NCBI GenBank assembly: GCA_963779685.1
Contig: CAVZZG010000003.1
Span: forward strand, 44,950 to 108,949
Direction: 5' to 3'
DNA: 64,000 nucleotides
Origin: an uncultured Actinomycetes bacterium
GTDB taxonomy: Bacteria; Actinomycetota; Thermoleophilia; Gaiellales; F1-60-MAGs149
The position numbers and the translations under genes are program-made. Shown piece by piece: positions 1 to 38,293 of this stretch. Within the stretch, counting starts at the first letter, position 1. Every line of letters begins with the position of its first letter. The notes beneath the pieces were generated by a model that saw only the letters and a list, made by a program, of their open reading frames with translations, made no database searches and was not told the DNA's origin.

Positions 1-560
<560 letters not shown>

Positions 561-711
561 GCGATCCTCCTTGGATTTTGAAAAAACGTCTGAGTTGCGA
601 AAGACGGTCCGAGACCGGAAACGTCCAGAATATTCCGAGATGCCCCGTTCCGACCGCTTGTTGCCGAAATAGGTGGTGTCCAACCACCTGCAAGGCCTCG
701 ATGGAAATTTT

Positions 712-738
712 CTAGCACTCACTTTCGAGGAGTGCTAG
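712..738 (-). promoter_or_regulatory. CIRCE operator (HrcA binding site) in the groES leader
   Basis: CTAGCACTC-N9-GAGTGCTAG is a perfect 9-bp inverted repeat that matches the CIRCE consensus TTAGCACTC-N9-GAGTGCTAA at 16 of 18 positions. It lies about 150 nt upstream of the groES start. Confidence 0.85.
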
Positions 739-1317: not shown

Positions 1318-2145
1318 ATGATCGGTCGCAACGGCGTGTACGTCATCGCAACAATTCTCGGCGCCGCATGTTTCTCGCCCGGCGCAATGGCGCAGGACAG
1401 CTACCCCAACCATCCGATCACCCTGCTGCATGGTTTCGCCGCCGGCGGCAATTCCGACACGATTTCGCGCACCATCGGCGAGCCGCTGTCGCAACGGCTC
1501 GGCCAGCCGGTCATCGTCGAAGCGCGCGCCGGCGCCGGCGGCAATCTCGCCTCCGACCGTCTCGTCAAGTCGCCGCCCGATGGCTACACGCTGATCACCT
1601 TGACCGGCGGCCACGCGGTGTCGGGCGCCATCTACAAGTCGCTGCCGTTCGACACGGTCGAATGACTTTCAGATGATCTCGATGCTGATCTATTTTCCGT
1701 TCGTCATCGCGGTGAAAAGCGATTCACGCTTCCAGTCGCTGACGCAGCTGATCGCCGAGGCCAAGGCCAAGCCGAACACGATCAATTATTCTTCCGCCGG
1801 CGTCGGCTCGACCCAGCATCTCGCCGGCGCGTTGTTCTGCGCCATGGCCGGCATCGAAATGATCCACATTCCCTACCGCGGCGGCACCGGGCCGATCACC
1901 GATCTGCTTGGGCGGGCAGGTGGACATCCTGGTCGACACCCAGACCGTGACGCTTGCCGCATATCGCTTCCGGCGCGATCCGCGGACTCGGCGTGACCAG
2001 CCCGGAAGAATGGCCGTCGCTGAAAGGCATTCCGCCGGTCGGCAAGACCGTGCCGGGCTACGACGTGCGCTCGTGGATGGGCGTCGCCGCGCCGAAGGGC
2101 TTGCCGGCGGCGATCACCGAGCGGCTCAACAGCGAAATCCGTTAC
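1318..2145 (+). pseudogene. Bug/TctC-family tripartite tricarboxylate transporter substrate-binding protein; three frameshifts and 3'-truncated
   Basis: The Bug-like sequence (signal peptide, then ..AQDSYPNHPITLLHGFAAGGNSD.., ..NYSSAGVGSTQHLAGALF..IPYRGG.., ..GGQVDILVDTQTVTL / PHIASGAIRGLGVTS..) is spread over four frame segments. One-nt insertions occur near 1663, 1911 and 1956. Similarity ends near 2140, before the expected C-terminus. Confidence 0.8.
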
Positions 2146-2150
2146 GTCAC

Positions 2151-3797
2151 CGCGCGCGCGCCGGTCCCCTCGAGGAGCGGGCGGCGGCCGGGGGCCCGGC
2201 CGATGTCCGGCCCGACCTGACCGACCACCAGGAGGTTGCGGTCGCCCGGGTGCTGGCGGCCGTCGACGCACGCGACCCCGGCGCCATCCTCCTCTTCGGC
2301 GTGACCGGGTCGGGAAAGACCGAGGTCTTCCTGCGCGGCGTCGAACGCGCGCTCGCGGCCGGCCGGTCGGCGATCGTGCTGGTGCCCGAGATCGCGCTCG
2401 CACCCCAGACTGCGGGACGGGTGGCCGCGCGCTTCGGCCCGATCGTGGCGGTCGTGCACTCCGGTCTCACGGCTGGTGAGCGCGCCGCCGAGTACGCCCG
2501 CATCGCGCGCGGGGAGGCCCGGGTCGTGGTCGGTGCCCGGTCGGCCATCCTGGCCCCCGTCCGCGACCTCGGCCTGATCGTGATCGACGAGGAGCACGAG
2601 TCGGCCTACAAGCAGGACTCCGATCCGCGCTACGACGCGCGAGCCGTGGCGATGGTGCGCGCTCGTCACCACGGCGCGCCGGTCGTGCTGTCGTCGGCGA
2701 CGCCGCGACCGGAGACCTGGCACCTCGTGCCCCGGGTCGAGCTGCCGGCGCGGGTCGCCGGGTCGCTGCCGCCGGTCGAGGTCGTCGACCTCACCCGCGA
2801 CGGGTCCTACCCGGTGTCGCGGCCGCTGCACGACGCGCTCGGTGGCATCGCCGACGACGGCGGCCGCGCGATCCTGCTTCTGAACCGTCGTGGTGAGGCG
2901 CCGGCACTCCACTGCCGCGAGTGCGGGATCACGTTCCGGTGCCCGGACTGCGACGTGGCGATGACGCTCCACCGCGCCCCGCCCGGCCTGCGCTGTCATC
3001 ACTGCGGCCGGGACGCGCCCGTCCCCGCCACCTGTCCGGCGTGCAACGCCGTCGACATCGCCCGGATCGGAGCGGGCACCGAGCGTCTCGAGCGGGTCAT
3101 CGCCGACCGCTACCCGGCGCTGGAGGTGATGCGCCTCGATGCCGACGTGACGGCGCGGCGCGGGGCGCTCGAGGAGACCCTCGACCGGTTCGGCAGCACC
3201 GAGCGCGCGGTCCTGGTCGGCACGCAACTGGTCGCCAAGGGCCACCACTTCCCCGGCGTGCGGCTGGCTGCCGCGGTCGACGCCGACGTCGGGCTCGCGC
3301 AGCCCGACTTCCGTGCCGAGGAGCGCACGTTCGCGCTCCTCGTCCAGCTCGCCGGCCGCGCGGGCCGCGAGGGCACGGGCGGCCGGGTGCTGATCCAGAG
3401 CTGGAGCCCCGAGAGCCGGGTCGTGCGGCTGGCGGCGCGGCATGCGGTGGCGGCATTCCTCGACGGCGAGCTCACGCGGCGCGAGCTGCTCGGGTACCCG
3501 CCCTACCGCCGCATCGTCCGGGTTCAGGTCACGGCCGACTCGATGGCCGTCGCGAACACGGTCCTGCACCGCCTGGCCGACGCCGCCAGGCCCGCACTCG
3601 GCGGCGACGCGCTGCTCGGCCCGGCGCCGCTCGGGCGGCTGCGCGGGCGCGAGCGCGCCCACCTGATCGTCAAGACGGGCCGCGCGCGCCGCGCCGCGGC
3701 CGTCCTCGGGGGCCTGGCAGCGCGGGACGCGGCGGCGATGCGTCGCGCCGGCGCCACGATCGTGGTCGACGTCGACCCCCAGTCGATGGTCGGATAA
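2151..3797 (+). CDS. priA: Primosomal protein N' (PriA helicase), 5'-truncated at the junction
   Basis: It carries Walker A GVTGSGKTEV, DEEH (VIDEEHESAYKQ), a Cys-rich zinc insertion (CRECG..CPDCD..CHHCG..CPACN) and the C-terminal PriA domain. Recognisable PriA sequence starts at ..PDLTDHQEVAV, so roughly 180-200 N-terminal residues are missing. Confidence 0.85.
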   Translation, partial: RARAGPLEERAAAGGPADVRPDLTDHQEVAVARVLAAVDARDPGAILLFGVTGSGKTEVFLRGVERALAAGRSAIVLVPEIALAPQTAGRVAARFGPIVAVVHSGLTAGERAAEYARIARGEARVVVGARSAILAPVRDLGLIVIDEEHESAYKQDSDPRYDARAVAMVRARHHGAPVVLSSATPRPETWHLVPRVELPARVAGSLPPVEVVDLTRDGSYPVSRPLHDALGGIADDGGRAILLLNRRGEAPALHCRECGITFRCPDCDVAMTLHRAPPGLRCHHCGRDAPVPATCPACNAVDIARIGAGTERLERVIADRYPALEVMRLDADVTARRGALEETLDRFGSTERAVLVGTQLVAKGHHFPGVRLAAAVDADVGLAQPDFRAEERTFALLVQLAGRAGREGTGGRVLIQSWSPESRVVRLAARHAVAAFLDGELTRRELLGYPPYRRIVRVQVTADSMAVANTVLHRLADAARPALGGDALLGPAPLGRLRGRERAHLIVKTGRARRAAAVLGGLAARDAAAMRRAGATIVVDVDPQSMVG

Positions 3798-26026: not shown

Positions 26027-26046
26027 GACCTCTGGCGCCGGCCGCC

Positions 26047-27033
26047 GTGACGATCGACTACTCGCAGATGTTCGTCGGGCTCGAGGGCGCCGCACGGGCC
26101 GAGAGCTCGCCGGCCGGTGAAGAACGGCGCCGCGGGCTCTTCCGCCGGCTCGCGGACAATCTCTCGAAGAGTCGCCGGGCGCTCACTGCACAGCTGGCGA
26201 CGATCGCCTTCGACCCGGCCGACGATTCGGTCTGGGAGCAGATCGAGGAGGCGCTGCTGCTGGCCGATTGCGGCGTCCCGGCGACGGTCGAGATCGTGCG
26301 CCGGCTCGAGGAGCGCAGCGCAACGGGCGGGCTCCGTACCCAGGACGACCTGCTTCGCGCTCTCCGCGAGGTCATCGCCGACATGCTGTCGGGCGCGGAG
26401 TCGCGCATCGACGTGTCGCATCGCCCGACGGTCGTCCTCGTCGTCGGTGTCAACGGCACCGGCAAGACGACGACGGTCGGCAAGCTCGCCGAGCACCTCC
26501 GCCGGGCCGGCGCATCCGTCGTCGTCGGCGCCGCCGACACGTTCCGCGCGGCCGCCGGCGAACAGCTCGAGACGTGGGCCGAGCGCGCGGGCGCCGACTT
26601 CGTCGGCTCGGTGCACGGCCAGGACCCGGCCGCAGTGGCGTTCGACGCCGTCAGCGCCGGCCTCGCCCGCGGCCGCGACGTCGTCCTCATCGACACCGCC
26701 GGCCGCCTCCACACCCAGTCCAACCTCATGGAGGAGCTCGCCAAGGTCCGCCGCGTCGTCACCCAGCGCCTCGCCGACGCGCCGCACGAGACCCTGCTGG
26801 TGGTCGACGCGACGACGGGCCAGAACGGCCTCCAGCAGGCCCGGCTGTTCGGCGCCGCCGTACCCCTCTCCGGCGTCGCCCTCACCAAGCTCGACGGCAC
26901 CGCCAAGGGCGGCATCGCCCTCGCCATCGCCCACGAGCTCGGCCTCCCGATCAAGCTCATCGGCGTCGGCGAGACGCTCGACGACCTGCGCCCCTTCAGC
27001 GCCGCCGACTTCGCAGCCGCTCTCGTCGGGTAG
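26047..27033 (+). CDS. ftsY: Signal recognition particle receptor FtsY
   Basis: NG-domain motifs GVNGTGKTTT, DTAGRL and TKLDGTAKGG. Confidence 0.95.
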   Translation: MTIDYSQMFVGLEGAARAESSPAGEERRRGLFRRLADNLSKSRRALTAQLATIAFDPADDSVWEQIEEALLLADCGVPATVEIVRRLEERSATGGLRTQDDLLRALREVIADMLSGAESRIDVSHRPTVVLVVGVNGTGKTTTVGKLAEHLRRAGASVVVGAADTFRAAAGEQLETWAERAGADFVGSVHGQDPAAVAFDAVSAGLARGRDVVLIDTAGRLHTQSNLMEELAKVRRVVTQRLADAPHETLLVVDATTGQNGLQQARLFGAAVPLSGVALTKLDGTAKGGIALAIAHELGLPIKLIGVGETLDDLRPFSAADFAAALVG

Positions 27034-27068
27034 CCGGAACCGGGGCGCGGTCTCCGCGGCCGGGTGGG

Positions 27069-27716
27069 TCAGGCTGCGGCGAAGGCTTCCGGGTAGAGGC
27101 GGATGACGAGCTCCTTGGCCTTGCCGTGGCGGGCGGGCTCGAGCTTGCGGCCGTAGAGCTGGCGGAGCTCGGCGTCGATGTCGCCCATGAAGCGGGCGGC
27201 GCGCTGACGCTTGGCCTCGACCTCGAGGCGGGCCTCGGGGTCGCCGGCGGGGTAGGTGACGCGGTCCCAGGTCAGCTCGAGGCGGTGGAGCCCGTTGACG
27301 TAGAGGTGCGAGCTGCGGCGGTTCTTGAGCTCGCCGATGTTCTCGAGCTCGACGTCGTCCGGCAGGTCGGCGGGCTCGGCGATCAGCTCCCACAGCTTGT
27401 AGCGATGGATGAGGGAGATGAACTCGGCCGAGTCGACCGGCACGTGGTCGATGGGCACCTCGACCTCCTCGCGCTGGCGGGCGCCGTCCTCGCGCCGCTC
27501 GGTCGGCCCCTTCCAGGTCAGGAGCGGGTGGGGCAGGTTCGACTGGCGCCGGATCCGCAGCGAGCAGCCAGAGCGCCGGACCCGGAACTCGGGGGTGTCC
27601 CAGAACGAGTCGACGATCTCGAACGTCAGCGACTCCGCGAGGGCGAAACCGGCGAGCTCCGCGGGAACCATCATCGCGTCGGTCGACCTGTACAGGTACT
27701 GGAGCTCGATCTCCAC
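27069..27716 (-). CDS. CYTH-domain protein (class IV adenylate cyclase / triphosphate tunnel metalloenzyme family)
   Basis: The GTG at 27716 gives VEIELQYL.., the ExExK-type CYTH start, followed by alternating charged beta strands (..LRIRRQ.., ..EVEVPI.., ..LEVEAK..). The longer ORF extending to 28136 is antisense to ffh. Confidence 0.78.
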   Translation of the reverse strand: MEIELQYLYRSTDAMMVPAELAGFALAESLTFEIVDSFWDTPEFRVRRSGCSLRIRRQSNLPHPLLTWKGPTERREDGARQREEVEVPIDHVPVDSAEFISLIHRYKLWELIAEPADLPDDVELENIGELKNRRSSHLYVNGLHRLELTWDRVTYPAGDPEARLEVEAKRQRAARFMGDIDAELRQLYGRKLEPARHGKAKELVIRLYPEAFAAA

Positions 27717-27750
27717 CGACCGGTATTGGAGCACAGTAGGCTTCGGCCAC

Positions 27751-29118
27751 GTGTTCGACTCCCTCTCCGACCGGCTGACCTCGGCACTCGGCGACCTTCG
27801 CAGCCGGGGCAAGCTGACCGAGGAGGACGTCCAGCGAGCCATGCGCGAGATCCGTCTCGCCCTGCTCGAGGCCGACGTCAACTTCCGGGTCGTCCGCGAC
27901 TTCGTCGCGAAGGTGCGCGAGCGCGCCGTCGGCGAAGGGGTGCTGACGGGGCTCAACCCGGGCCAGCAGGTCGTCAAGATCGTCAACGAGGAACTGACCG
28001 CGCTGATGGGGACGGGCTCCGCGAAGCTCTCGTTCGCCAGCCACGGCGCGACGGTGATCCTGATGGCGGGTCTGCAGGGGTCGGGCAAGACCACCGCCTC
28101 CGGCAAGCTCGCGATGCTGCTCGCCAAGCAGGGCAAGAAGCCGGCGCTGGTCGCCTGCGACGTCTACCGGCCCGCCGCTGTCGACCAGCTGAAGACCCTC
28201 GGCGCGCAGGTCGGCGTGCCGGTCTTCGATCGCGGCACCGACACCGACCCGGTGGAGATCGCGAAGTGGGGGGTCGAGGCCGCTCGCCAGCAGGGTCGCG
28301 ACGTCGTCATCGTCGACACCGCCGGGCGGCTGCACGTCGATGACGACCTGATGGCCGAACTGGTGCGCATCCGGGATGCCGTGAAGCCCCACGACGTGCT
28401 CCTCGTGCTCGATGCCATGACCGGTCAGGACGCCGTCAACGTGGCGGAGACGTTCCGCGAGCGGGTCGCCTTCGACGGCATCGTGCTGACGAAGCTCGAC
28501 GGCGATGCCCGGGGCGGCGCGGCGCTGTCGGTGCGGGCCGTCACGGGCGTCCCCGTCAAGTTCGCGTCCGTCGGCGAGAAGCTCGACCAGCTGGAGGAGT
28601 TCCACCCCGACCGCATGGCATCGCGGATCCTGGGGATGGGCGACGTCCTGACGCTGATCGAGCGGATCGAGGAGAACGTCGACCACCAGAAGCAGGCCGA
28701 GCTCGAGGCCAAGATCCGCAAGGCCGAGTTCAGTCTCGACGACCTGCTCGACCAGCTGAAGACGATCCGCCGCATGGGTTCCCTCGGCGGTCTCATGAAG
28801 ATGATCCCCGGCATCGGCAAGCAGCTGCAGGGCGTCGACATCGACGACCGGCAGCTCGACAAGGTCGAGGCGATTATCCTTTCCATGACGCCGGAGGAGC
28901 GGCTGAGACCGGATATCGTGAGCGGGTCACGGCGCACGCGCATCGCGCGGGGCTCCGGGACCTCGGTGCAGCAGGTCAACGCACTCCTCCAGCAGCACAA
29001 GCAGATGAAGAAGATGATGCGCACGATCGCCGGTGGCGGTGCGCCGCGGATCCCGGGGATGCCCGGCCTGCCGGGCCAGTCCACGGGAGCGTCCAAGAAG
29101 CGCAAGAAGAAGAGGTGA
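27751..29118 (+). CDS. ffh: Signal recognition particle protein Ffh
   Basis: VFDSLSDRL.. at the N-terminus, G-domain motifs GLQGSGKTT, DTAGRL and TKLDGDARGG, and a Met-rich M domain with a Lys-rich tail. Confidence 0.95.
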   Translation: MFDSLSDRLTSALGDLRSRGKLTEEDVQRAMREIRLALLEADVNFRVVRDFVAKVRERAVGEGVLTGLNPGQQVVKIVNEELTALMGTGSAKLSFASHGATVILMAGLQGSGKTTASGKLAMLLAKQGKKPALVACDVYRPAAVDQLKTLGAQVGVPVFDRGTDTDPVEIAKWGVEAARQQGRDVVIVDTAGRLHVDDDLMAELVRIRDAVKPHDVLLVLDAMTGQDAVNVAETFRERVAFDGIVLTKLDGDARGGAALSVRAVTGVPVKFASVGEKLDQLEEFHPDRMASRILGMGDVLTLIERIEENVDHQKQAELEAKIRKAEFSLDDLLDQLKTIRRMGSLGGLMKMIPGIGKQLQGVDIDDRQLDKVEAIILSMTPEERLRPDIVSGSRRTRIARGSGTSVQQVNALLQQHKQMKKMMRTIAGGGAPRIPGMPGLPGQSTGASKKRKKKR

Positions 29119-29128
29119 CCGCAAGGTG

Positions 29129-29365
29129 ATGAAGATGCGCCTGACCCGTCTCGGGTCGAAGAAGAACCCGATCTACCGGATCGTCGTGGCCGACTCGGCG
29201 TCGCCGCGCGACGGTCGCGCGATCGAGTACATCGGCCGCTACAACCCGCAGCTCGAGCCGTCGCTGATCGAGATCGACGCCGAGCGCGCCCGCCACTGGC
29301 TCGCCCGTGGCGCGCAGCCGTCCCAGCCCGTCCGCCGCCTGCTGTCCAAGGCCGGCGTCGTCTGA
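29129..29365 (+). CDS. rpsP: 30S ribosomal protein S16
   Basis: MKMRLTRLGSKKNPIYRIVVADSASPRDGR.. is canonical S16. Confidence 0.93.
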   Translation: MKMRLTRLGSKKNPIYRIVVADSASPRDGRAIEYIGRYNPQLEPSLIEIDAERARHWLARGAQPSQPVRRLLSKAGVV

Positions 29366-29370
29366 CGCCG

Positions 29371-29628
29371 ATGGCCGCCAGCGAGCTGCCGCAGGACGTC
29401 CGGGGGCTCTGCGAGTACCTGGTCCGCCGGCTCGTCGATGAGCCCGACGCCGTCCGGGTCGACGAGGCGATCGAGGACGGGCAGCTGGTGTTGCGCGTCC
29501 ACGTCGCGGAGCCGGATCGCGGGAAGGTGATAGGCCGGCAGGGCCGCGTCGTCCGCGCGCTCCGCACCGTCACACGTGCCGGCGGAATCCGCACCGGCCA
29601 GCGCGTCAACGTCGAGATCGAGGCCTGA
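29371..29628 (+). CDS. KH-domain RNA-binding protein (YlqC/UPF0109)
   Basis: It has the GKVIGRQGR GXXG loop and the conserved position between rpsP and rimM. Confidence 0.85.
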   Translation: MAASELPQDVRGLCEYLVRRLVDEPDAVRVDEAIEDGQLVLRVHVAEPDRGKVIGRQGRVVRALRTVTRAGGIRTGQRVNVEIEA

Positions 29629-29662
29629 CGCGGAGGCTCCCCATCCGTGGCGCCCGGCGCGG

Positions 29663-30133
29663 GTGCGGGTCGGCACCGTGGGCCGAGCGCACGGGCTGAA
29701 CGGCGCCGTCTACGTCGAGGCGCCCTGCGGATGGTTCGGGTTCGGGCCCGGATCACGCGTCGAGGTGGGCGGCCAGGCCCGTCTGATCACGCAGCGGACG
29801 GGCACGGACAACCGCCCGATCCTGCTGTTGGACGGCATCGGCGATCGCACGGCCGCCGACGAGCTCCGCAACCAGGCCATCGAGGTCGGCGCCGAGGCGC
29901 TGCCCGAGCCAGAGCCGGACGCCTTCTATCGCTTCGACCTCATCGGCTGCGATGCGTTCCAGGGCGACTGCAAGCTCGGCAAGATCGCGGCCGTCGAGGA
30001 TGGCGTCGCCCACGACGTGCTCGTGCTCGACTCCGGCCTGCGGGTGCCGTTCGTGACGGCGCTGGTGCCGGTCGTCGACGTGCCCGGGCGCCGTCTCGAG
30101 ATCGCGGCGGACGTCCTGCTCGCCGATGCCTGA
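29663..30133 (+). CDS. rimM: 16S rRNA processing protein RimM
   Basis: VRVGTVGRAHGLNGAV.. forms the N-terminal barrel, followed by a PRC-barrel C-terminus. The GTG at 29663 is chosen because it follows the KH gene stop. Confidence 0.85.
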   Translation: MRVGTVGRAHGLNGAVYVEAPCGWFGFGPGSRVEVGGQARLITQRTGTDNRPILLLDGIGDRTAADELRNQAIEVGAEALPEPEPDAFYRFDLIGCDAFQGDCKLGKIAAVEDGVAHDVLVLDSGLRVPFVTALVPVVDVPGRRLEIAADVLLADA

Positions 30134-30827
30134 GATCGACGTCTTCACGCTGTTTCCGAGCTGGTTCTCGTGGCTGGTCGAGGAGCGCCACGTCTCGAAC
30201 GCGCTCGCCGGCCCGCTGGCGCTTCGCCTGCACAACCTGCGCGACTACTCGCCACTGAAGCACCGCATGCTCGACGACGAGCCCTACGGCGGCGGCGCGG
30301 GGATGCTGATCCGGATCGACGTCGTCGTGGCGGCCCTCGAGGGCGCGCTCGGCGCCGGCCTCGACGAGCTGCGCAGCGGTGCCCGGATCGCCGTCCTCGA
30401 CCCGGGTGGCACCCGGTTCGACGACGCCTATGCCCGCGATCTGGCCGCCAGCGAACGGCTGGTGCTGCTGTGCGGGCGCTACGAGGGCTTCGATCACCGC
30501 GTCCACGAGCACGTCGCCACGGAGGCGATCTCGCTCGGCCCCTACGTCGTCTCCGGTGGCGAGGTCGCTGCCATGGTCGTGATCGACGCCGTGGCGCGCC
30601 ATCTCGAGGGCGCACTCGGCGACGCCGACTCCGCCCACCGGGACTCGTTCTCGCCCGCACTCGACGGCGGCATCGAGCACCCGCACTACACGCGGCCCCC
30701 GGAGTTCCGCGGCTGGGGGGTGCCTGCGGTGCTGCTGAGCGGCGACCACGGCGCCATCGCCCGCTGGCGTGCCGAGCGCGGGGCGCAGCGGACGGAAGCG
30801 GCGAGCCGCCGCCCGCCCATCGAGTAG
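30126..30827 (+). CDS. trmD: tRNA (guanine37-N1)-methyltransferase TrmD
   Basis: IDVFTLFP.., [23 protein letters not shown] and [11 protein letters not shown] are TrmD motifs. Confidence 0.95.
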
Positions 30828-30864
30828 CATCCGACCTGCCGTTCACGGAACGAGGACGACTGCG

Positions 30865-31210
30865 ATGAAGACGCTCATCCACGACATCGAGGCCATGCAG
30901 CTCCGGGACATCCCGGTGTTCAAGGCCGGCGACACCGTCCGCGTGCACTTCCGCGTGATCGAGGGCAACCGCCAGCGCGTGCAGGTCTTCGAGGGCATCG
31001 TGATCAAGCGCCAGGGCCACGGCGTTCGCGAGACCTTCACGGTCCGCAAGCAGTCCTTCGGGGTCGGCGTCGAGCGCACGTTCCCGCTCCACTCGCCGAA
31101 GATCGACCAGATCGAGGTCGTCGCCGATCGGCGACGTGAACCGCGCCAAGCTGTACTACCTCCGGGACAAGGTCGGCAAGAAGGCCCGCGTCCGGGAGAA
31201 GCAGCGCTGA
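30865..31210 (+). CDS. rplS: 50S ribosomal protein L19, with an apparent +1 frameshift near 31126-31131
   Basis: L19-like sequence runs to ..[13 protein letters not shown] in frame 1. The conserved C-terminus [26 protein letters not shown] continues in frame 2 and ends at 31210. As written, the ORF instead reads a junk tail to 31242. Confidence 0.85.
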
Positions 31211-31359
31211 CCGGTCGGTCGCGCGTTTTCCGGGTATCGTGAGCCCGTGAGCGACGGGCGTCAGCGAATCCGAGGGCATGCCCGTGCCCGCAGATCCCGG
31301 TGCCGTGGCGCCGGCTCCGGTCGGTCCGGAGCCGCCGTGCCGCCCGGGCGCCGGCCGGG

Positions 31360-31966
31360 ATGTTCACGAGCCTGCGCAACATCTTCGGGCCGTGGATCGA
31401 GCTGATCGTCGTCGTCGGGCTCGCGTTCGGCGTGGCCTACTGCATCCAGTGGCTGATCGTGAAGCCCTACCGGATCCCGAGCCCGTCGATGGAACGCACC
31501 CTGCTGGTCGGCGACCGCGTGATCGTCGCCCGCTTCTGGTACCGGTTCACCGACGTCTCGCGCGGCGACATCGTGGTGTTCCACCCACCCGAGGACCTCG
31601 AGCGCGGGGCGACGACGCCCGACTCGCAGACGTTCATCAAGCGGGCGGTCGGCCTGCCCGGCGACTGGGTCGGGACGACGAAGGGCCAGGTCTACATCTG
31701 CTCGGCCCGCCCGGCATCGCGCAAGACACCGCTCGCCACGCCGGCTGCCGCGCCCTCAACGAGCCCTACACCGAGGGCGTGTCGCGCAGCTGCCAGGGCC
31801 GGCGCGACTTCGGCCCGACGCTGATCCCGCCGACCATTACCTCATGCTCGGCGATAACCGGGAGGACTCCGAGGACGGCCGGTGCTTCGGCCTCATCCCG
31901 AAGGGATGGATCCTCGGGCGCGCGTTCGCACGCATCTGGCCGCTGCAGCGAGTCGGCCTCCTCTAG
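31360..31966 (+). pseudogene. lepB: Signal peptidase I paralog 1, interrupted by two -1 frameshifts (possibly sequence errors)
   Basis: PSPSMERTL (Ser box) and IKRAVGLPGD (Lys box) are in frame 1. ..GIAQDTARHAGCRALNEPYTEG..DFGPTLIPP is in frame 0. DHYLMLGDNREDSEDGRCFGLIP..IWPL..* is in frame 2. The shifts are near 31705-31715 and 31830-31833. Confidence 0.75.
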
Positions 31967-31972
31967 CTCCAC

Positions 31973-32614
31973 ATGCGCGATCTGCTGAAGCGCATCCGCG
32001 GGAACTTCTGGGGCGACCTCGGGATCACCGTCCTGACCGCACTGGCGATCGCGTACGTGTTCCAGCTGTGGATCGCCAAGCCGTTCGTCGTGCCGTCACC
32101 GTCGATGGTGCCGACCCTGCTCGAGGGCGACCGGCCGTTCGCGGTGCGGTTCCTGTACCACTTCACCGACCCCAAGCGCGGCGACATCCTGATCTTCCAC
32201 CCGAACGGCAAGGGCGACCGGCAGTTCCGGCCGCTGGACGGTCAGAAGTCGTGGTCCGAGCCGTACTTCGTGAAGCGCGTCATCGGCCTGCCGGGTGAGG
32301 TGATCGGGTCGGCCCAGGGCCACGTCTACGTGTGCGCGGACGGCAAGTTCCCCGTCGACCCCGCGCATCCCGAGCAGACCGCCGGCTGCAAGCTCCTCGA
32401 CGAGCCGTACGTCCACGGCCAGAAGTCGTACGGATCCGATCAGGGATCGGACTTCGGGCCGGAGAAGATCCCGGCCGGGTACTACTTCATGATGGGCGAC
32501 AACCGCACCTTCTCCGACGATTCGCGGTACTGGGGGCCGATCCCGCGCAGCCAGATCGTCGGCCGCGTCTTCATGATCTACTGGCCGCTCAACCGGATCC
32601 AGTTCTTCCTCTAG
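31973..32614 (+). CDS. lepB: Signal peptidase I paralog 2
   Basis: An N-terminal TM helix is followed by PSPSMVPTL, VKRVIGLPGE and MMGDNRTFSDDSRYWG. Confidence 0.9.
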   Translation: MRDLLKRIRGNFWGDLGITVLTALAIAYVFQLWIAKPFVVPSPSMVPTLLEGDRPFAVRFLYHFTDPKRGDILIFHPNGKGDRQFRPLDGQKSWSEPYFVKRVIGLPGEVIGSAQGHVYVCADGKFPVDPAHPEQTAGCKLLDEPYVHGQKSYGSDQGSDFGPEKIPAGYYFMMGDNRTFSDDSRYWGPIPRSQIVGRVFMIYWPLNRIQFFL

Positions 32615-32617
32615 GCC

Positions 32618-33214
32618 GTGCCTCGCATCCGTTCCCACCGGCTGCTCGTCGTCGCGGCGATCGCCGCCGTGGCGCTCACGTGGTGGTTCGTCCGCCCGTA
32701 CCGGATCCCGACCCCCTCGATGGTGCCGACGTTCCGGCCGGGCGACCAGGTGCTCGCGGCCCGCGTCTACGCCTTCGCCGATCCCGAGCGCGGCGACCTG
32801 GTGGTGTTCCATCCCAACGGCAAGGGCAACAGGGTGTTCCAGGCGAACACGGTCTCGTCCGAGACGTACGTGAAGCGCCTGGTAGGGCTGCCCGGCGAGT
32901 CGATCGGGAGCCACAACGGGCGCGTCTACGTATGCCGAGACGGCATCGAGCCTCCGCAGGCCGGCGGCCCCGACTCGACCCCCGGGTGCCGGTATCTCGC
33001 CGAGCCGTACGTCCACGGTCAGGCGACGGGCCCGTGCGGCTCGCCCGGCGGCGACTTCGGTCCCATCCTCCTGCGGCCGTCCAGCTACTACCTGCTCGGC
33101 GACAACCGGATCGGCTCGGAGGACTCCCGCTGCTTCGGCCAGGTCTCGCGCGATCAGTTCATGGGCGAGGTGTTCCTGCTCTACTGGCCACCCGGCCGGA
33201 TCGGCGTCCCGTGA
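32618..33214 (+). CDS. lepB: Signal peptidase I paralog 3
   Basis: It has PTPSMVPTF, VKRLVGLPGE and LLGDNRIGSEDSRCFG. Confidence 0.9.
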   Translation: MPRIRSHRLLVVAAIAAVALTWWFVRPYRIPTPSMVPTFRPGDQVLAARVYAFADPERGDLVVFHPNGKGNRVFQANTVSSETYVKRLVGLPGESIGSHNGRVYVCRDGIEPPQAGGPDSTPGCRYLAEPYVHGQATGPCGSPGGDFGPILLRPSSYYLLGDNRIGSEDSRCFGQVSRDQFMGEVFLLYWPPGRIGVP

Positions 33215-33215
33215 C

Positions 33216-34112
33216 GTGCTGACGCCCACGCCATCGCTGCGACGACCTCGTCCGGCCGCCCCCCGCGTGCTCGCCTTCGCTCGCCTGGGACGCTGGCCCC
33301 GGCCGCTCGGCCTGTTCGGGCTGGAGCTGGTGGCCGCGATGGTGGGGTCGCTGTGGCGACCCGGCATCGTGGCGTTCGCCCTCGTCTGGGCGACGGCCGC
33401 CGCCACGCTCGTGCTCGATGCCCGCCTGCGCGGACGGCGGGGGGTCGTGGCCGGGCTGTTCGGCGTCGCCCTCGGGCCGCTCGGTTGCGTCGTCATCAGC
33501 TTCGGCGCCCGTCGGGCCGTCCGCAAGGTGGGGCCTCGCTTCCGGGGAGCGGTGGCCCGGGCCGTCGTCGCCGGCGTGCTGGGCGGCGTCGTGGCCGCGG
33601 CCGGCGGGTACTGGGCCATCGACCGGGTCGGCTCGACGGCCTTCGCCCCTGCCAGCGGGATGGCGCCGAGGATCGCGAAGGGCGACCTGATCGTCATCTC
33701 GCCGGGCCTCGAGACCCGTGTCCGCCGCGGTGACATCGTCGCCGTCTCGTCCTTCCCCGGAGCCCGTCACGTCCGCCGCCGCGGCCGTATCGTCGGGGTC
33801 GGCCGGGTCGTCGGGCTTCCGGGCGACTGGGTCGGGGCGACGAGCCAGGGCCTGTACATCTGCGTCTCGGCGCCGGACATCACCGCCGATGTCTCGCGCG
33901 AGAGCGGCTGCCTGTTCCCCGACGAGCCGTACACGAGCTCGGCGACGCCGCCGTTCGGCCCCGTCCAGGTGCCGGCGGACTCCTACTACGTCCTTGGAGA
34001 CGATCGCCAGGTCGTGACGGATTCGCGCCTGTACGGGGCCGTGCCGGCCTCCGCGGTGGCCGGGCGCGTGGTCGCGGTAATCTGGCCGCCGTCGCGGATC
34101 GCGCTTCGCTAG
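33216..34112 (+). CDS. Signal peptidase I-like protein with both catalytic residues substituted and an N-terminal multi-TM extension
   Basis: It aligns with paralogs 1-3. The Ser box reads PASGM (catalytic Ser to Gly) and the Lys box reads VGRVVGLPGD (Lys to Gly), while VLGDDRQVVTDSR is retained. About 130 extra N-terminal residues contain several hydrophobic segments. Confidence 0.72.
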   Translation: MLTPTPSLRRPRPAAPRVLAFARLGRWPRPLGLFGLELVAAMVGSLWRPGIVAFALVWATAAATLVLDARLRGRRGVVAGLFGVALGPLGCVVISFGARRAVRKVGPRFRGAVARAVVAGVLGGVVAAAGGYWAIDRVGSTAFAPASGMAPRIAKGDLIVISPGLETRVRRGDIVAVSSFPGARHVRRRGRIVGVGRVVGLPGDWVGATSQGLYICVSAPDITADVSRESGCLFPDEPYTSSATPPFGPVQVPADSYYVLGDDRQVVTDSRLYGAVPASAVAGRVVAVIWPPSRIALR

Positions 34113-34132
34113 TCACGGATCGCGCGTCTTCG

Positions 34133-34828
34133 GTGACCGGCGGCTCGGGTAGGCTCTCGCCGATGGCCGTCGCCGCCCGATCCCGCACCCGCGGCAGTGC
34201 CCTGCGGCGGCTGCTGGCGCACGACAGGTCGTTCGGCAGCCGCTACGTGGCGGGGGCGGACGAGGCCGGCCGGGGCGCGCTGGCGGGCCCGCTGGTGGTC
34301 GCAGCCGTCCTGCTCGAACCGTTGTCCGTGACCGTCGCGGAGCGGCGGGCGCTCCGCCGCCTCGACGACTCCAAGCGCTGTACGCACGCCGCCCGCGTCG
34401 CCCTCCTGCCGGCCGTCTTCGAGACCGCCCGCCGCATATCCGTCGTGGTGGTCCCAGTGGGCGAGGTGGACGCGACCGGGATCCACCGGGCCGATCTCGC
34501 GGCCCTCGCACGGTGTCTGCGCGAGGTCGCGCCGGCCGACGACGTCACCCTGCTTGCGGACGGCTTCCGGGTGCCGCTGGAGCGGGACCACGTGGCCGTC
34601 ATCGACGGCGATACCAAGAGCGCGGCGATCGCCGCCGCATCCATCGTCGCGAAGGTCACCCGCGACCGCCTCATGGAGCACCTCGCCGAGGTGCACGAGG
34701 GCTACGGATTCGAGCGTCACGTCGGGTACGGCACGCCGGAGCATCTCGCGGCGCTGCGCCGGCTCGGGCCGACGGCGCTGCACCGGCGCAGCTTCGCGCC
34801 GTGCAGCCAGCTCACGCTCGGCGTGTGA
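34133..34828 (+). CDS. rnhB: Ribonuclease HII
   Basis: Catalytic motifs are GADEAGRGALAGPLVVAA and DDSKRC. The alternative start is the ATG at 34163. Confidence 0.9.
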   Translation: MTGGSGRLSPMAVAARSRTRGSALRRLLAHDRSFGSRYVAGADEAGRGALAGPLVVAAVLLEPLSVTVAERRALRRLDDSKRCTHAARVALLPAVFETARRISVVVVPVGEVDATGIHRADLAALARCLREVAPADDVTLLADGFRVPLERDHVAVIDGDTKSAAIAAASIVAKVTRDRLMEHLAEVHEGYGFERHVGYGTPEHLAALRRLGPTALHRRSFAPCSQLTLGV

Positions 34829-35151
34829 CGACCGCCCGGTACGGACGCGGCGGCGAGCGCTACGCGCTGGCGCTCTACCTGCTGCGAGGCTACCGCGTGC
34901 TCGGACGGCGCGTGCGCACGCCGGCGGCCGAGGTCGATCTCGTGCTCCGGCGCGGCCGCACGCTGGTGCTGGTGGAGGTCAAGCGCCGCCGGGTCGCCTC
35001 GCCGGAGACCCGCTGGATCGAGCCGGCCCAGATCGAACGGCTGCGGGCGGCGGCGCGCATCCTGCGCTCGTCGCAGCCCTGGGCCGTGCAGGTGCGGATC
35101 GACCTGGTCACGATCGAGGGGGCACGGCCCACGACCAGGCGCCTTCTGTGA
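34825..35151 (+). CDS. yraN: YraN-family (UPF0102) endonuclease-like protein
   Basis: GERYALALYLLRGYRVLGRRVRTPAAEVDLVLRRGRTLVLVEVKRR is the YraN core. The GTG overlaps the rnhB stop. Confidence 0.85.
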   Translation: MTTARYGRGGERYALALYLLRGYRVLGRRVRTPAAEVDLVLRRGRTLVLVEVKRRRVASPETRWIEPAQIERLRAAARILRSSQPWAVQVRIDLVTIEGARPTTRRLL

Positions 35152-35197
35152 CGCTGCGCGCAGCCGCTGCTACCCGGCGGGCGGCGATGCTCGGCCG

Positions 35198-36658
35198 GTG
35201 GAGCTGGCGCGCGCCTGCACGATCGCGATCGAGGGACTCGATGCCGTGCCGATCGACGTCGAGGCGCACGTGCTCGACGATCCCACCGCCCCGTCCCGGA
35301 TGACGATCGTCGGCCTTCCGGATGCGGCCGTCCGCGAGGCACGGGAAAGGGTGCGCTCCGGGATGCGCTCGGCCGAGCTGCGGTTCCCCGGCGGACAGAT
35401 CGTCATCAACCTCGCGCCGGCCACGCTGAAGAAGGCCGGCGCCGGATTCGACCTCGCCATCGCGCTGGCCATCCTCGCCGCCACCGGACAGGTGCCGTAC
35501 GAGGCGCCCCGGTCGGTCGCCGCGCTGGGTGAGCTGGGGCTCGATGCATCGGTCCGTCCCGTGCGCGGCGCCATCGTCGCCGCCGAGATGGCCCGCCGGC
35601 TGGGGCTCGACGGCGTGCTGTGCGCCGCCGAGGTCGCCGGCGAGGTCGGGCTGGTGCCGGGCATCCGCGCAGTGCCGTGCCGGACGCTCCGTGACGCGGT
35701 GGCGTTCCTGCGCGACGGGGTCATCCCCGAGGCCCCGCTATCGCCCGTTCGACCGGCTGCGCCGGCACTGCCCGACCTCGCCGACGTCCGCGGCCAGCCG
35801 ACCGCCCGCCGCGCGCTCGAGATCGCGGCAGCGGGCGGCCACAACCTGCTGCTCGTCGGGCCACCAGGGGTCGGCAAGACGATGCTCGCGCGGCGACTGC
35901 CGGGCGTGCTGCCACCGCTCGGCGATCAGGAGGCGCTGGAGACCACCCGGATCCACTCCGTCGCAGGCCTGCTCGACGCCGGCGTCGGCCTCGTGAGGAG
36001 CCGGCCGTTCCGGGCCCCGCACCACTCGGCGTCGGCTGCGGCCCTCATCGGCGGCGGACCTCGGCTCAGGCCCGGCGAGCTGCCGCTGGCCACCAACGGC
36101 GTGCTCTTCCTGGACGAGCTGCCCGAGTTCCGCCGGGATGCGCTGGAGGCGTTGCGCGGGCCGCTCGAGGACGGCGTGATCCGGATCGCCCGGGCCCACG
36201 GCGTGGCCGTCTACCCCTGCCGCACCGCCCTGATCGCCGCCATGAACCCGTGTCCGTGCGGGCCGGGCGGCGACGGCTGCCTCTGCCAGCCGGATCAGAT
36301 CCGCAGCTATCGCCGCAAGATCTCGGGGCCCCTGCTCGACCGCATCGACCTATGCGTCCAGCTCGCGCGGCCCGAGGCGGCGGTGCTCCGCACCGATCGC
36401 CCCGAGTCGTCGGCGGTCGTCGCCGGGCGCGTGCTGCAGGCCGTCGAACGACGGCGGGCGCGGGCGGGGGAGACGCGGCTGTCCGACGACGCCGAGCAGA
36501 TGCTGCGGCGGGCGATCGACCGTATGCGGCTCTCGCCGCGGGCCGTCGCGCGCTCGGTGCGGGCAGCGCGGACGATCGCCGACCTGGCCGCGGCCGGCGA
36601 TGTCGGCCCCGACCACGTGGCCGAGGCGCTCTCGCTGCGGGTGGGGAGGATCGCGTGA
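35198..36658 (+). CDS. comM: YifB/ComM-family Mg-chelatase-like AAA+ ATPase
   Basis: An N-terminal Lon-protease-like domain (VNLAPATLKKAGAGFDLAIALAIL) is followed by Walker A GPPGVGKT, GVLFLDELPEF and a Cys cluster. Confidence 0.93.
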   Translation: MELARACTIAIEGLDAVPIDVEAHVLDDPTAPSRMTIVGLPDAAVREARERVRSGMRSAELRFPGGQIVINLAPATLKKAGAGFDLAIALAILAATGQVPYEAPRSVAALGELGLDASVRPVRGAIVAAEMARRLGLDGVLCAAEVAGEVGLVPGIRAVPCRTLRDAVAFLRDGVIPEAPLSPVRPAAPALPDLADVRGQPTARRALEIAAAGGHNLLLVGPPGVGKTMLARRLPGVLPPLGDQEALETTRIHSVAGLLDAGVGLVRSRPFRAPHHSASAAALIGGGPRLRPGELPLATNGVLFLDELPEFRRDALEALRGPLEDGVIRIARAHGVAVYPCRTALIAAMNPCPCGPGGDGCLCQPDQIRSYRRKISGPLLDRIDLCVQLARPEAAVLRTDRPESSAVVAGRVLQAVERRRARAGETRLSDDAEQMLRRAIDRMRLSPRAVARSVRAARTIADLAAAGDVGPDHVAEALSLRVGRIA

Positions 36659-37515
36659 TCGCGCGCGGCGCCCTCCACTACCCGGCGGCCCTGGCGGAAC
36701 TCGCCGATCCCCCGGCGGAGTTGTACCTGCGCCCGCCCGCCGGCCCGGCGACGCTGGCAGCGTTGCTGCGCCCGCCGGTCGTCGCCATCGTCGGCGGCAG
36801 GAGGGCATCCGAGATCGGCATGGCCTTCACGCGCCGGCTGGCCCGCGAGCTCGCCGCGGCGGGCGTGGGCATCGTCTCGGGGCTCGCCAGGGGCATCGAC
36901 GGCGCGGCACACCTCGGAGCGCTCGACGCCGGCGGGCGCACCGTGGCCGTGCTCGGCTGTGGCATCGACCGCGACTATCCGCGATCGAACGCCGGTCTCG
37001 CCGCCCGGATCGCAGCCCTGGGGGCGATCATCTCCGAGTATCCGCCCGGCACCGAACCGGCGCCGTGGCGGTTCCCGGCCCGGAACCGGCTGGTCGCGGC
37101 CCTGGGACAGGCCGTCGTGGTCGTCGAGGCGTCCCGGCGCAGCGGCGCGCTGATCACCGCTGCCTGCGCGCTCGACCTCGGCCGGGAAGTGCTCGCCGTG
37201 CCGGCCTCGCCCTGGGTGGACGCGGCGGCCGGCGGCAACGGCCTCTTGCGCGACGGTGCCACACCGGTCACCGGTGCCGGCGACGTGCTCGTTGCGCTCG
37301 GCCTCGACCCGGCCCTCGCCGGCGCCGCCGACGACCCTGACCTGCGCCAGGACGCCCGGCGCCTGCTCGACGCCATCCGACGGTGCCCGGCGGGCCCCGA
37401 CGCCCTCGCGGCGCGACTCGGGCTGACGGCCGCGACGCTCGCGGGCCTCGTCTCCGAGCTGGAGCTCGCGGGGGTCGTGACCCGCGAGGCCGACGGGTCG
37501 CTCTCCGCCTCCTGA
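36655..37515 (+). CDS. dprA: DNA-processing protein DprA
   Basis: It has IVGGRRAS..G, SGLARGIDGAAH and RFPARNRLVAAL. The GTG overlaps the comM stop. Confidence 0.9.
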   Translation: MIARGALHYPAALAELADPPAELYLRPPAGPATLAALLRPPVVAIVGGRRASEIGMAFTRRLARELAAAGVGIVSGLARGIDGAAHLGALDAGGRTVAVLGCGIDRDYPRSNAGLAARIAALGAIISEYPPGTEPAPWRFPARNRLVAALGQAVVVVEASRRSGALITAACALDLGREVLAVPASPWVDAAAGGNGLLRDGATPVTGAGDVLVALGLDPALAGAADDPDLRQDARRLLDAIRRCPAGPDALAARLGLTAATLAGLVSELELAGVVTREADGSLSAS

Positions 37516-38220: not shown

Positions 38221-38293
38221 AGGGGCGTAGCTCAGCTGGTAGAGCATCGGTCTCCAAAACCGAGGGTCGCAGGTTCGAGCCCTGTCGCCCCTG
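38221..38293 (+). tRNA. tRNA-Trp (anticodon CCA)
   Basis: It folds by hand into a cloverleaf. The acceptor stem is AGGGGCG/CGCCCCT. The D arm is GCTC-AGCTGGTA-GAGC. The anticodon arm is TCGGT-CTCCAAA-ACCGA. The T arm is GCAGG-TTCGAGC-CCTGT. The CCA end is not encoded. Confidence 0.9.

Follow-up and report, generated by a model that had tools for sequence, protein, structure and literature searches.

Can a type I signal peptidase gene that has lost both residues of its catalytic dyad still be a working gene and, if so, what might its product do? This question is raised by lepB4, the last of four tandem S26-family genes in a 64,000-nucleotide stretch of DNA from an uncultured member of the Gaiellales (Actinomycetota), the whole of which is called the window below. 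The lepB4 coding sequence (33216..34112 of the window, on the plus strand like all lepB4 features given below) encodes 298 amino acids followed by a stop codon, and combines a polytopic N-terminal domain with an S26 domain that is very probably catalytically dead. Our overall explanation, to which we assign a probability of about 0.55, is that lepB4 is a non-catalytic homologue of type I signal peptidases (SPases), in short a pseudo-SPase, kept by selection. Taken by itself, the loss of catalysis together with functional retention of the protein is highly probable, while a binding or accessory role is a tentative proposal to which we would give somewhat less than even odds.

The S26 domain and its catalytic positions

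By sequence and by predicted fold, lepB4 is clearly an S26 signal-peptidase homologue. The Pfam family PF10502 (Peptidase_S26) covers residues 141-290 with E=8.4e-18, and the NCBIfam model TIGR02227 scores 71.4 bits for a cutoff of 47. An AlphaFold2 model, computed on an 18-sequence alignment and having a mean predicted local distance difference test score (pLDDT) of 76.7, contains an S26-fold domain at residues 141-298 (33636..34109), a delimitation to which PF10502, Foldseek and a pLDDT of about 80-94 all contribute. In a Foldseek search of the model against the PDB, this domain gave the matches: Staphylococcus aureus SpsB and Escherichia coli LepB were matched at E about 2e-7, and SpsB, LepB and Streptococcus pyogenes SipA all fell within E 1e-6 to 1e-7, with a TM-score of 0.73 and a root-mean-square deviation of 3.1 Å for SipA (4n31). 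The model and these matches support the statement of an earlier note on this DNA that the overall fold is kept.

The columns of the catalytic dyad were located by three independent alignments, which agree with one another. First, MAFFT was applied to lepB4, four Streptomyces Sip proteins and 25 canonical paralogs, the latter from eight Gaiellales-type loci: all canonical sequences carry (S/T)xSM, (V/I)KR and GD(N/H)RxxSxD(S/G)R, and the same columns of lepB4 read PASGM, GVGR and GDDRQVVTDSR. Second, phmmer alignment with the E. faecalis SPase 4me8 sets 'GMAPRI' over 'SMEPTL', so that Gly148 stands opposite the Ser, and places Gly196 opposite the Lys of 'AKR'. Third, alignment of a lepB4-family profile with SpsB puts an Ala/Gly column (consensus 'saam') opposite Ser36 of 'GESM' and a Gly column opposite Lys77 of 'YVKRV'. 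The position of the nucleophile (E. coli Ser90, SpsB Ser36) is thus occupied by Gly148 (codon GGG, 33657-33659) in 'PASGM', and that of the general base (E. coli Lys145, SpsB Lys77) by Gly196 (codon GGC, 33801-33803) in 'GVGRVVGLPGD'. The same residues occur at both positions in a separate metagenome contig, L036. The earlier note had read the Ser and Lys boxes in just this way, and when lepB4 is aligned with S26 references neither a Ser nor a Lys is indeed found at its dyad columns.

Across the lepB4 family, the column equivalent to Lys145 contains Gly (15), Leu (7), Phe (7) or Tyr (1) and no Lys in 30 sequences, and the column equivalent to Ser90 contains Ala (19), Gly (7), Asp (1) and Ser in only two of 29. 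A third column, equivalent to E. coli Ser278, is filled by Val, Leu, Pro, Gly and others (hydrophobic residues, Gly or Pro) and never by Ser (0/30); in the window protein, its place is taken by Val267 (34014-34016). These counts support the earlier view that the protein is catalytically dead. They also refine what had been said of the downstream box, box E ('GDDRQVVTDSR', 33996..34028): D262, R264, D269, S270 and R271 are kept as claimed and the Ser278 equivalent is not. In the family, the Asp280-Ser281-Arg282 equivalent is D-S-R in all 30 sequences, and the Gly272 equivalent is relaxed (G17, A7, S5).

Altogether, six positions that are invariant in the 25 canonical paralogs are replaced, namely the Ser and Thr of SMxPT, the Phe-His of box C, the Lys and the Ser278 equivalent. 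The lepB4 family and the same 25 paralogs nevertheless have eighteen scaffold positions in common, among them P145, D157, G172, R197, G207, C216, C232, E237, Y239, D262, R264, D269, R271 and W290, and the structural core that is kept also counts GD157, GLPG and DSR271. The invariant Cys216 and Cys232, which may form a disulfide, bound a cap segment (33861..33911) that is also present in the local canonical paralogs. No alternative conserved Ser, Lys or His was found in the S26 domain across the lepB4-family alignment. Because base, nucleophile and supporting residues are all lost, hydrolysis by a Ser/Lys mechanism is excluded for lepB4 as far as the sequence can tell.

Conservation, selection and origin of lepB4

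About 25-30 orthologues of lepB4 were found, from metagenome-assembled genomes (MAGs) of Gaiellales/Thermoleophilia and from metagenomes. A search of 5.8 billion proteins returned 17 full-length orthologues with 40-97% identity, and when 1.84 billion cluster representatives were searched exhaustively with a HMMER profile, only 13 proteins lay below 1e-30, followed by a sharp fall in score to the level of ordinary S26 proteins; this marks a small family confined to one lineage. The closest public relatives are MAGs labelled Gaiellales, Gaiellaceae, Thermoleophilia or Actinomycetota, and L036, a Joint Genome Institute (JGI) contig, is 96.6% identical to the window across 11.3 kb. Conservation persists down to 40% identity, with 40 invariant columns, and the family is monophyletic in a neighbour-joining tree.

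The place of lepB4 in the genome is equally constant. In all eight loci with DNA or gene calls, lepB4 is the last S26 gene, directly before rnhB, and it is flanked by ffh, rpsP, rimM, trmD, rplS, the other lepB copies, rnhB, yraN, comM and dprA. The search for related loci used two narrow peptide patterns and so gives no measure of prevalence across Gaiellales genomes. The number of canonical copies that precede it is two in L006 and L007, three in the window, L036 and the contig of the orthologue P0002, and four in L001, L003, L004 and L005. Since canonical copies vary from two to four while lepB4 is constant, the active paralogs turn over and the inactive one is fixed.

Selection was measured as the ratio of non-synonymous to synonymous substitution rates (dN/dS, or omega) by the Nei-Gojobori method between the window and L036. 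The ratio is 0.093 for the whole lepB4 gene, 0.028 for its S26 domain (24 synonymous and two non-synonymous differences) and 0.228 for its transmembrane (TM) domain; it is 0.033 for lepB2, 0.136 for lepB3, 0.056 for rnhB and 0.097 for comM. Comparison of four more distant genomes (L001, L003, L004 and L005) gives an omega of 0.18-0.25 for lepB4 and of 0.11-0.43 for the four groups of canonical paralogs. Purifying selection on lepB4 is as strong as on its active neighbours, and its orthologues show neither relaxed selection nor decay (omega 0.03-0.25). Together with the conserved synteny and the monophyly of the family, this supports the retained non-catalytic role that the earlier note had proposed.

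As for the origin of the gene, the cap insertion bounded by cysteines is common to lepB4 and the local canonical paralogs and is missing from the SPases of Streptomyces and Acidimicrobiales. Furthermore, lepB4 and the lepB1-type copy have in common an indel pattern and the motif 'GLPG(D/E)WVG'. These common features show that lepB4 arose by duplication within the Thermoleophilia/Gaiellales lineage, independently of the inactive homologue SipA and probably also of SpsA, both discussed below. Every source that names proteins of the lepB4 family calls them 'signal peptidase I', and the family passes the TIGR02227 'equivalog' cutoff. Through this annotation, counts of active SPase paralogs in Gaiellales/Thermoleophilia genomes are inflated by one. 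In the literature, no paper linking Gaiellales with signal peptidases was found.

The N-terminal domain and the possible role of lepB4

Compared with lepB2 (nucleophile at Ser44) and lepB3 (Ser34), lepB4 gains about 104-114 residues at its N-terminus. The several hydrophobic segments attributed to this extension are borne out as three to four helices, and its length falls short of the roughly 130 residues first estimated. The AlphaFold2 model has helices at residues 16-25, 30-46, 48-71, 74-86, 88-97 and 107-138, followed by the beta-rich domain. Residues 1-29 (33216..33302) form an Arg-rich, presumably cytoplasmic tail with a conserved 'RWPRP' and, as a mean over the family, 8.6 Lys and Arg residues. 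Residues 30-71 (33303..33428) contain TM1 (30-46) and TM2 (48-71), as given by hydropathy and by the DSSP helices of the model, with W58, A62, L67 and D68 invariant. The basic loop 'LDARLRGR' (residues 67-74, 33414..33437), with invariant D68 and R72, is present in every family member. It leads into a pair of hydrophobic helices (residues 74-97, 33435..33506) broken at the invariant G87-P88, a candidate re-entrant hairpin or third TM segment. A second basic loop, 'RRAVRKV' (33510..33530; R99, R103 and K104 invariant), precedes the last TM segment (residues 107-138, 33534..33629; model helix and hydropathy), which leads into the S26 domain and corresponds to the single anchor of canonical Gram-positive SPases. 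With G80 added, the invariant residues of the domain are W58, A62, L67, D68, R72, G80, G87, P88, R99, R103 and K104, and mean column conservation in the family is 0.60 for the N-terminal domain vs 0.66 for the S26 domain.

Searches for relatives of the N-terminal domain gave nothing consistent in Pfam (E<=10, window protein and all 18 aligned members), and Foldseek against the PDB matched only the S26 part and left the helical part unmatched. When the alignment of the N-terminal domain was itself used as a profile, two fragments were the only hits, and one of these bears the name Gaiellaceae; in the exhaustive profile search, hits to the N-terminal domain alone were short fragments at contig ends. 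A likeness of the pattern 'W...DA.R.GR.G...GP.G' to PLDc_N-like TM hairpins was dropped, there being no Pfam match. Outside the window, a metagenomic protein of 233 amino acids (P0177) is a separate S26 homologue without the dyad ('GEAM', 'VLRV'), and the loop of its TM hairpin, 'W..VDAARRGRNG', resembles 'W...LDARLRGRRG' of lepB4. Since hhalign gave a probability of only 25%, homology of P0177 with the lepB4 N-terminal domain is not claimed; the combination of dead S26 domains with similar hairpins may have arisen more than once or reflect a distant common origin.

Under the positive-inside rule, basic loops are expected to be cytoplasmic. The strongly basic loops of lepB4 lie at residues 68-76 ('DARLRGRRG') and 97-111 ('RRAVRKVGPRFRG'), and from hydropathy and this rule the N-terminal tail and both loops should be cytoplasmic. 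This would fit if residues 74-97, broken at the invariant Gly-Pro, form a re-entrant hairpin, or if residues 30-71 cross the membrane only once; in either case the S26 domain would be outside, like that of real SPases. The strongly basic loop ahead of the last helix and the invariant Cys pair, which the active paralogs also have, favour this placement.

We can therefore sketch the following role for a pseudo-SPase of this kind. Co-translated with the active paralogs, lepB4 would be a membrane protein whose N-terminus and two basic loops face the cytoplasm and whose S26 domain lies outside. The retained S26 scaffold and groove might bind, without cleaving them, signal-peptide or cleavage-region segments, or else the active SPases themselves, so that lepB4 would act as an accessory or regulatory subunit, or as a holdase, in preprotein processing, the polytopic N-terminal domain providing membrane contacts. 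SipA, in which Asp and Gly stand at the dyad but the cleft for peptides is preserved, is a precedent (PMC4049620). A bolder form of this proposal, which we regard as quite unlikely, is that the SPase of Gaiellales is a hetero-oligomeric membrane complex with lepB4 as its dedicated polytopic non-catalytic subunit, which, at the translocon, would dock the active LepB paralogs, preproteins or both and modulate the choice of substrates. If so, bacteria would have a counterpart both of the eukaryotic signal peptidase complex with its several subunits and of pseudoprotease regulators, the iRhoms among them.

Several observations weigh against the pseudo-SPase explanation or parts of it. Two family members (P0031 and P0034) keep the nucleophile Ser, in 'SASM' and 'SRSM', with the Lys replaced by Tyr and Gly; this pattern points to loss of the Lys as the first event and to a later drift of the Ser column. 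In the S1/S3 pocket, conservation fails at several positions, the equivalents of E. coli Tyr143, Asp142 and Phe84, and the presence of a canonical signal-peptide groove is thus not assured. The topology derives from hydropathy and the positive-inside rule only, the N-terminal domain is modelled with a modest pLDDT of about 57-79, and a strict reading with four TM segments would leave the S26 domain in the cytoplasm. A partnership with the active peptidases, for which the grounds are only operon position and scaffold residues, is plausible. Finally, the closest analogue of lepB4, SpsA of S. aureus, is reported to be dispensable, and its function is not agreed upon (PMC12414704, PMC12445088). 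Encoded next to spsB, SpsA is without both catalytic residues and without peptidase activity (PMC12414704, PMC12445088), and it resembles lepB4 in its missing dyad residues, its location immediately beside active SPase gene(s) and its annotation as a type I signal peptidase. It is, however, a small single-TM protein of Bacillota that is sometimes viewed as a pseudogene product, whereas lepB4 has a conserved N-terminal domain of three to four helices, belongs to Gaiellales, arose by local duplication and is under purifying selection. Given this local duplication, a common origin of the two is unlikely, SpsA being compared here by its description.

Among the alternatives, the strongest places the function mainly in the novel polytopic N-terminal domain, in relation to the membrane, lipids or transport, and makes the dead S26 domain a structural or sensing ectodomain unrelated to signal-peptide processing. 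The N-terminal domain does carry family-invariant polar and other residues (D68, R72, R99, R103, K104, W58 and G87-P88), its column conservation is close to that of the S26 domain, it has no relative in Pfam or the PDB, and P0177 has, ahead of its own dead S26 domain, a weakly similar 'W..DA.RRGR.G' hairpin. Yet it is the S26 domain that is the more constrained of the two (omega 0.028 vs 0.228 for the TM domain), lepB4 is never found outside the lepB array, and the N-terminal domain without S26 is seen only as contig-end fragments. We therefore consider this alternative unlikely.

SipA of S. pyogenes offers a second model, that of an assembly chaperone dedicated to one surface polymer or secreted client such as a pilus or an S-layer. 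In SipA, Asp48 and Gly85 take the places of the dyad while the peptide-binding cleft is conserved, and its role in pilus polymerisation is essential and involves no catalysis; further inactive S26-type proteins are encoded in Gram-positive genomes (PMC4049620). SipA/LepA (4n31, 4k8w) and lepB4 are alike in their S26 fold, in the replacement of the dyad with a Gly at the Lys position, in the Asp-Ser-Arg kept in box E and in the loss of the Ser278 equivalent, and SipA is among the best matches of lepB4 both in fold and in sequence, where it ranks third and fourth in the PDB. They differ in that the Ser position of SipA is taken by an Asp, and SipA has only one TM anchor and is encoded in the FCT pilus island together with a sortase and pilins, whereas lepB4 lies in a housekeeping rplS-lepB-rnhB array without pilus genes in all eight loci. 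No sortase, pilin or other client genes occur near lepB4, whose context is the block ffh-rpsP-rimM-trmD-rplS-lepB-rnhB. Moreover, SipA is matched equally by the canonical, active lepB2 (28 bits, vs 29 bits for lepB4), and the dyad must therefore have been lost independently. A specific kinship with SipA was rejected on this ground, the lineage indels and cysteines pointing to the local paralogs, and a SipA-like chaperone role for lepB4 is improbable.

It might also be asked whether lepB4 has kept peptidase activity by means of a non-canonical nucleophile or base, or through substrate-assisted catalysis. In the window protein, Ser147 sits one residue upstream of the nucleophile position; two residues upstream, the equivalent of E. 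coli Ser88 is Ser in 14 of 29 members (Ala146 here); and D269, S270 and R271 are invariant. However, Ser147 is not conserved, the Ser278 equivalent is hydrophobic, and nowhere near the active site is a Ser, Lys or His conserved in the family, whose nucleophile column holds Ala, Gly, Asp or Ser and whose base column holds Gly, Leu, Phe or Tyr. SipA and SpsA, which have similar substitutions, show no activity (PMC4049620, PMC12414704). Residual peptidase activity is for these reasons very improbable. As to lepB4 being a neutral relic, a decaying pseudogene or a sequencing artefact, as might be imagined from the indels in the adjacent rplS and lepB1 and from the suspicion that SpsA is a pseudogene product (PMC12414704), the intact frame in every genome found, an omega of 0.03-0.25, conservation down to 40% identity with its 40 invariant columns, and the identical dyad-position residues in L036 with no indels within lepB4 essentially refute it.

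The pseudo-SPase explanation thus places lepB4 among inactive S26 homologues, which are already established elsewhere, and the framing of the earlier note overlooks SpsA and SipA. With canonical SPases (E. coli LepB, S. aureus SpsB and the Streptomyces SipW-Z clusters) lepB4 has in common the family, the fold, the scaffold of boxes B-E, an N-terminal membrane anchor and the tandem organisation of paralogs downstream of rplS. It departs from them in lacking the Ser/Lys dyad, Thr94, the Phe133-type residue and the Ser278 equivalent, and in its extra polytopic domain of about 105-115 residues. What appears to be new is the independent actinobacterial origin, the conserved polytopic N-terminal domain without detectable relatives, the strict terminal position in a housekeeping lepB array and the quantitative evidence for selection. 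Among the nearest non-family S26 homologues with complete motifs, 21 of 141 lack the Ser and/or the Lys, a proportion taken from a biased set, since a dead-family profile was used to retrieve it. Since inactive homologues are established and common among the nearest homologues, and since the organisms are uncultured, the immediate impact is modest. Nonetheless, lepB4 gives a clear example of a pseudoenzyme that is under purifying selection and held fast in the operon of its active relatives, and the role of inactive SPase paralogs can be studied better with it than with SpsA, which is dispensable.

The lepB4 neighbourhood and other features of the window

The lepB4 frame is intact and starts with a GTG codon at 33216, a start backed by the 'MLTP...' beginnings of the orthologues P0002 and P0003 and by codons 1-17, in which the window and L036 differ by two synonymous and no non-synonymous changes. 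The TGA stop of lepB3 (33212-33214) is separated from this GTG by one nucleotide. Both the intact open reading frame (ORF) and the tight coupling to lepB3 that had been described for this gene therefore hold. Upstream, on the plus strand, lie lepB2 (31973..32614), a canonical SPase I gene with Ser44, the Lys and GDNRTFSDDSR, and lepB3 (32618..33214), likewise canonical with Ser34. The first gene of the array, lepB1 (about 31361..31965, plus strand), is of canonical type and is interrupted here by one-nucleotide deletions at 31740 and 31825; in L036 it is intact and encodes 240 amino acids. Of the three neighbours with which lepB4 had been aligned, lepB2 and lepB3 are thus intact and lepB1 is frameshifted in the window.

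The wider block reads ffh, rpsP, a KH-domain gene, rimM, trmD, rplS and the four tandem S26 genes, followed by rnhB, yraN, comM and dprA, all on the plus strand. A scan of 30700-35300 found no terminator-like or promoter sites, which is uninformative at the G+C content of about 72% of the window in an actinobacterium; the lack of a terminator-like site is consistent with co-transcription of the lepB array.

Relative to L036, six single-base indels were counted, all within 31126-31825 and none in the other 13 genes compared (coding block 26032-37286). Five are in or near lepB1 (31253, 31338, 31350, 31740 and 31825); the deletions at 31740 and 31825 lie in C-runs and leave box E of lepB1 out of frame with boxes B-D. 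The sixth is an extra G at 31126 in rplS (30865-31210, plus strand), where the window reads 'GTCGCCGATCGGC' and L036 'GTCGCCATCGGC', and through the resulting frameshift ribosomal protein L19 loses its conserved C-terminal 27 residues. Since this protein is an essential one, a local assembly or sequencing error is likelier than real pseudogenes.

At the start of the window, positions 1-1950 have a G+C content of 52-63%, compared with 70-76% elsewhere. This stretch carries a GroES-like ORF (246..722, minus strand) and fragmented ORFs resembling the TctC/Bug family (1246-1996), and it ends at the start of a PriA-like ORF (1908..3797); it may mark a chimeric junction in the assembly or be DNA gained by horizontal transfer. 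Finally, the only Rfam match in the window is a tRNA gene (RF00005, 69 bits) at 38221-38293, downstream of a sodA-like ORF.

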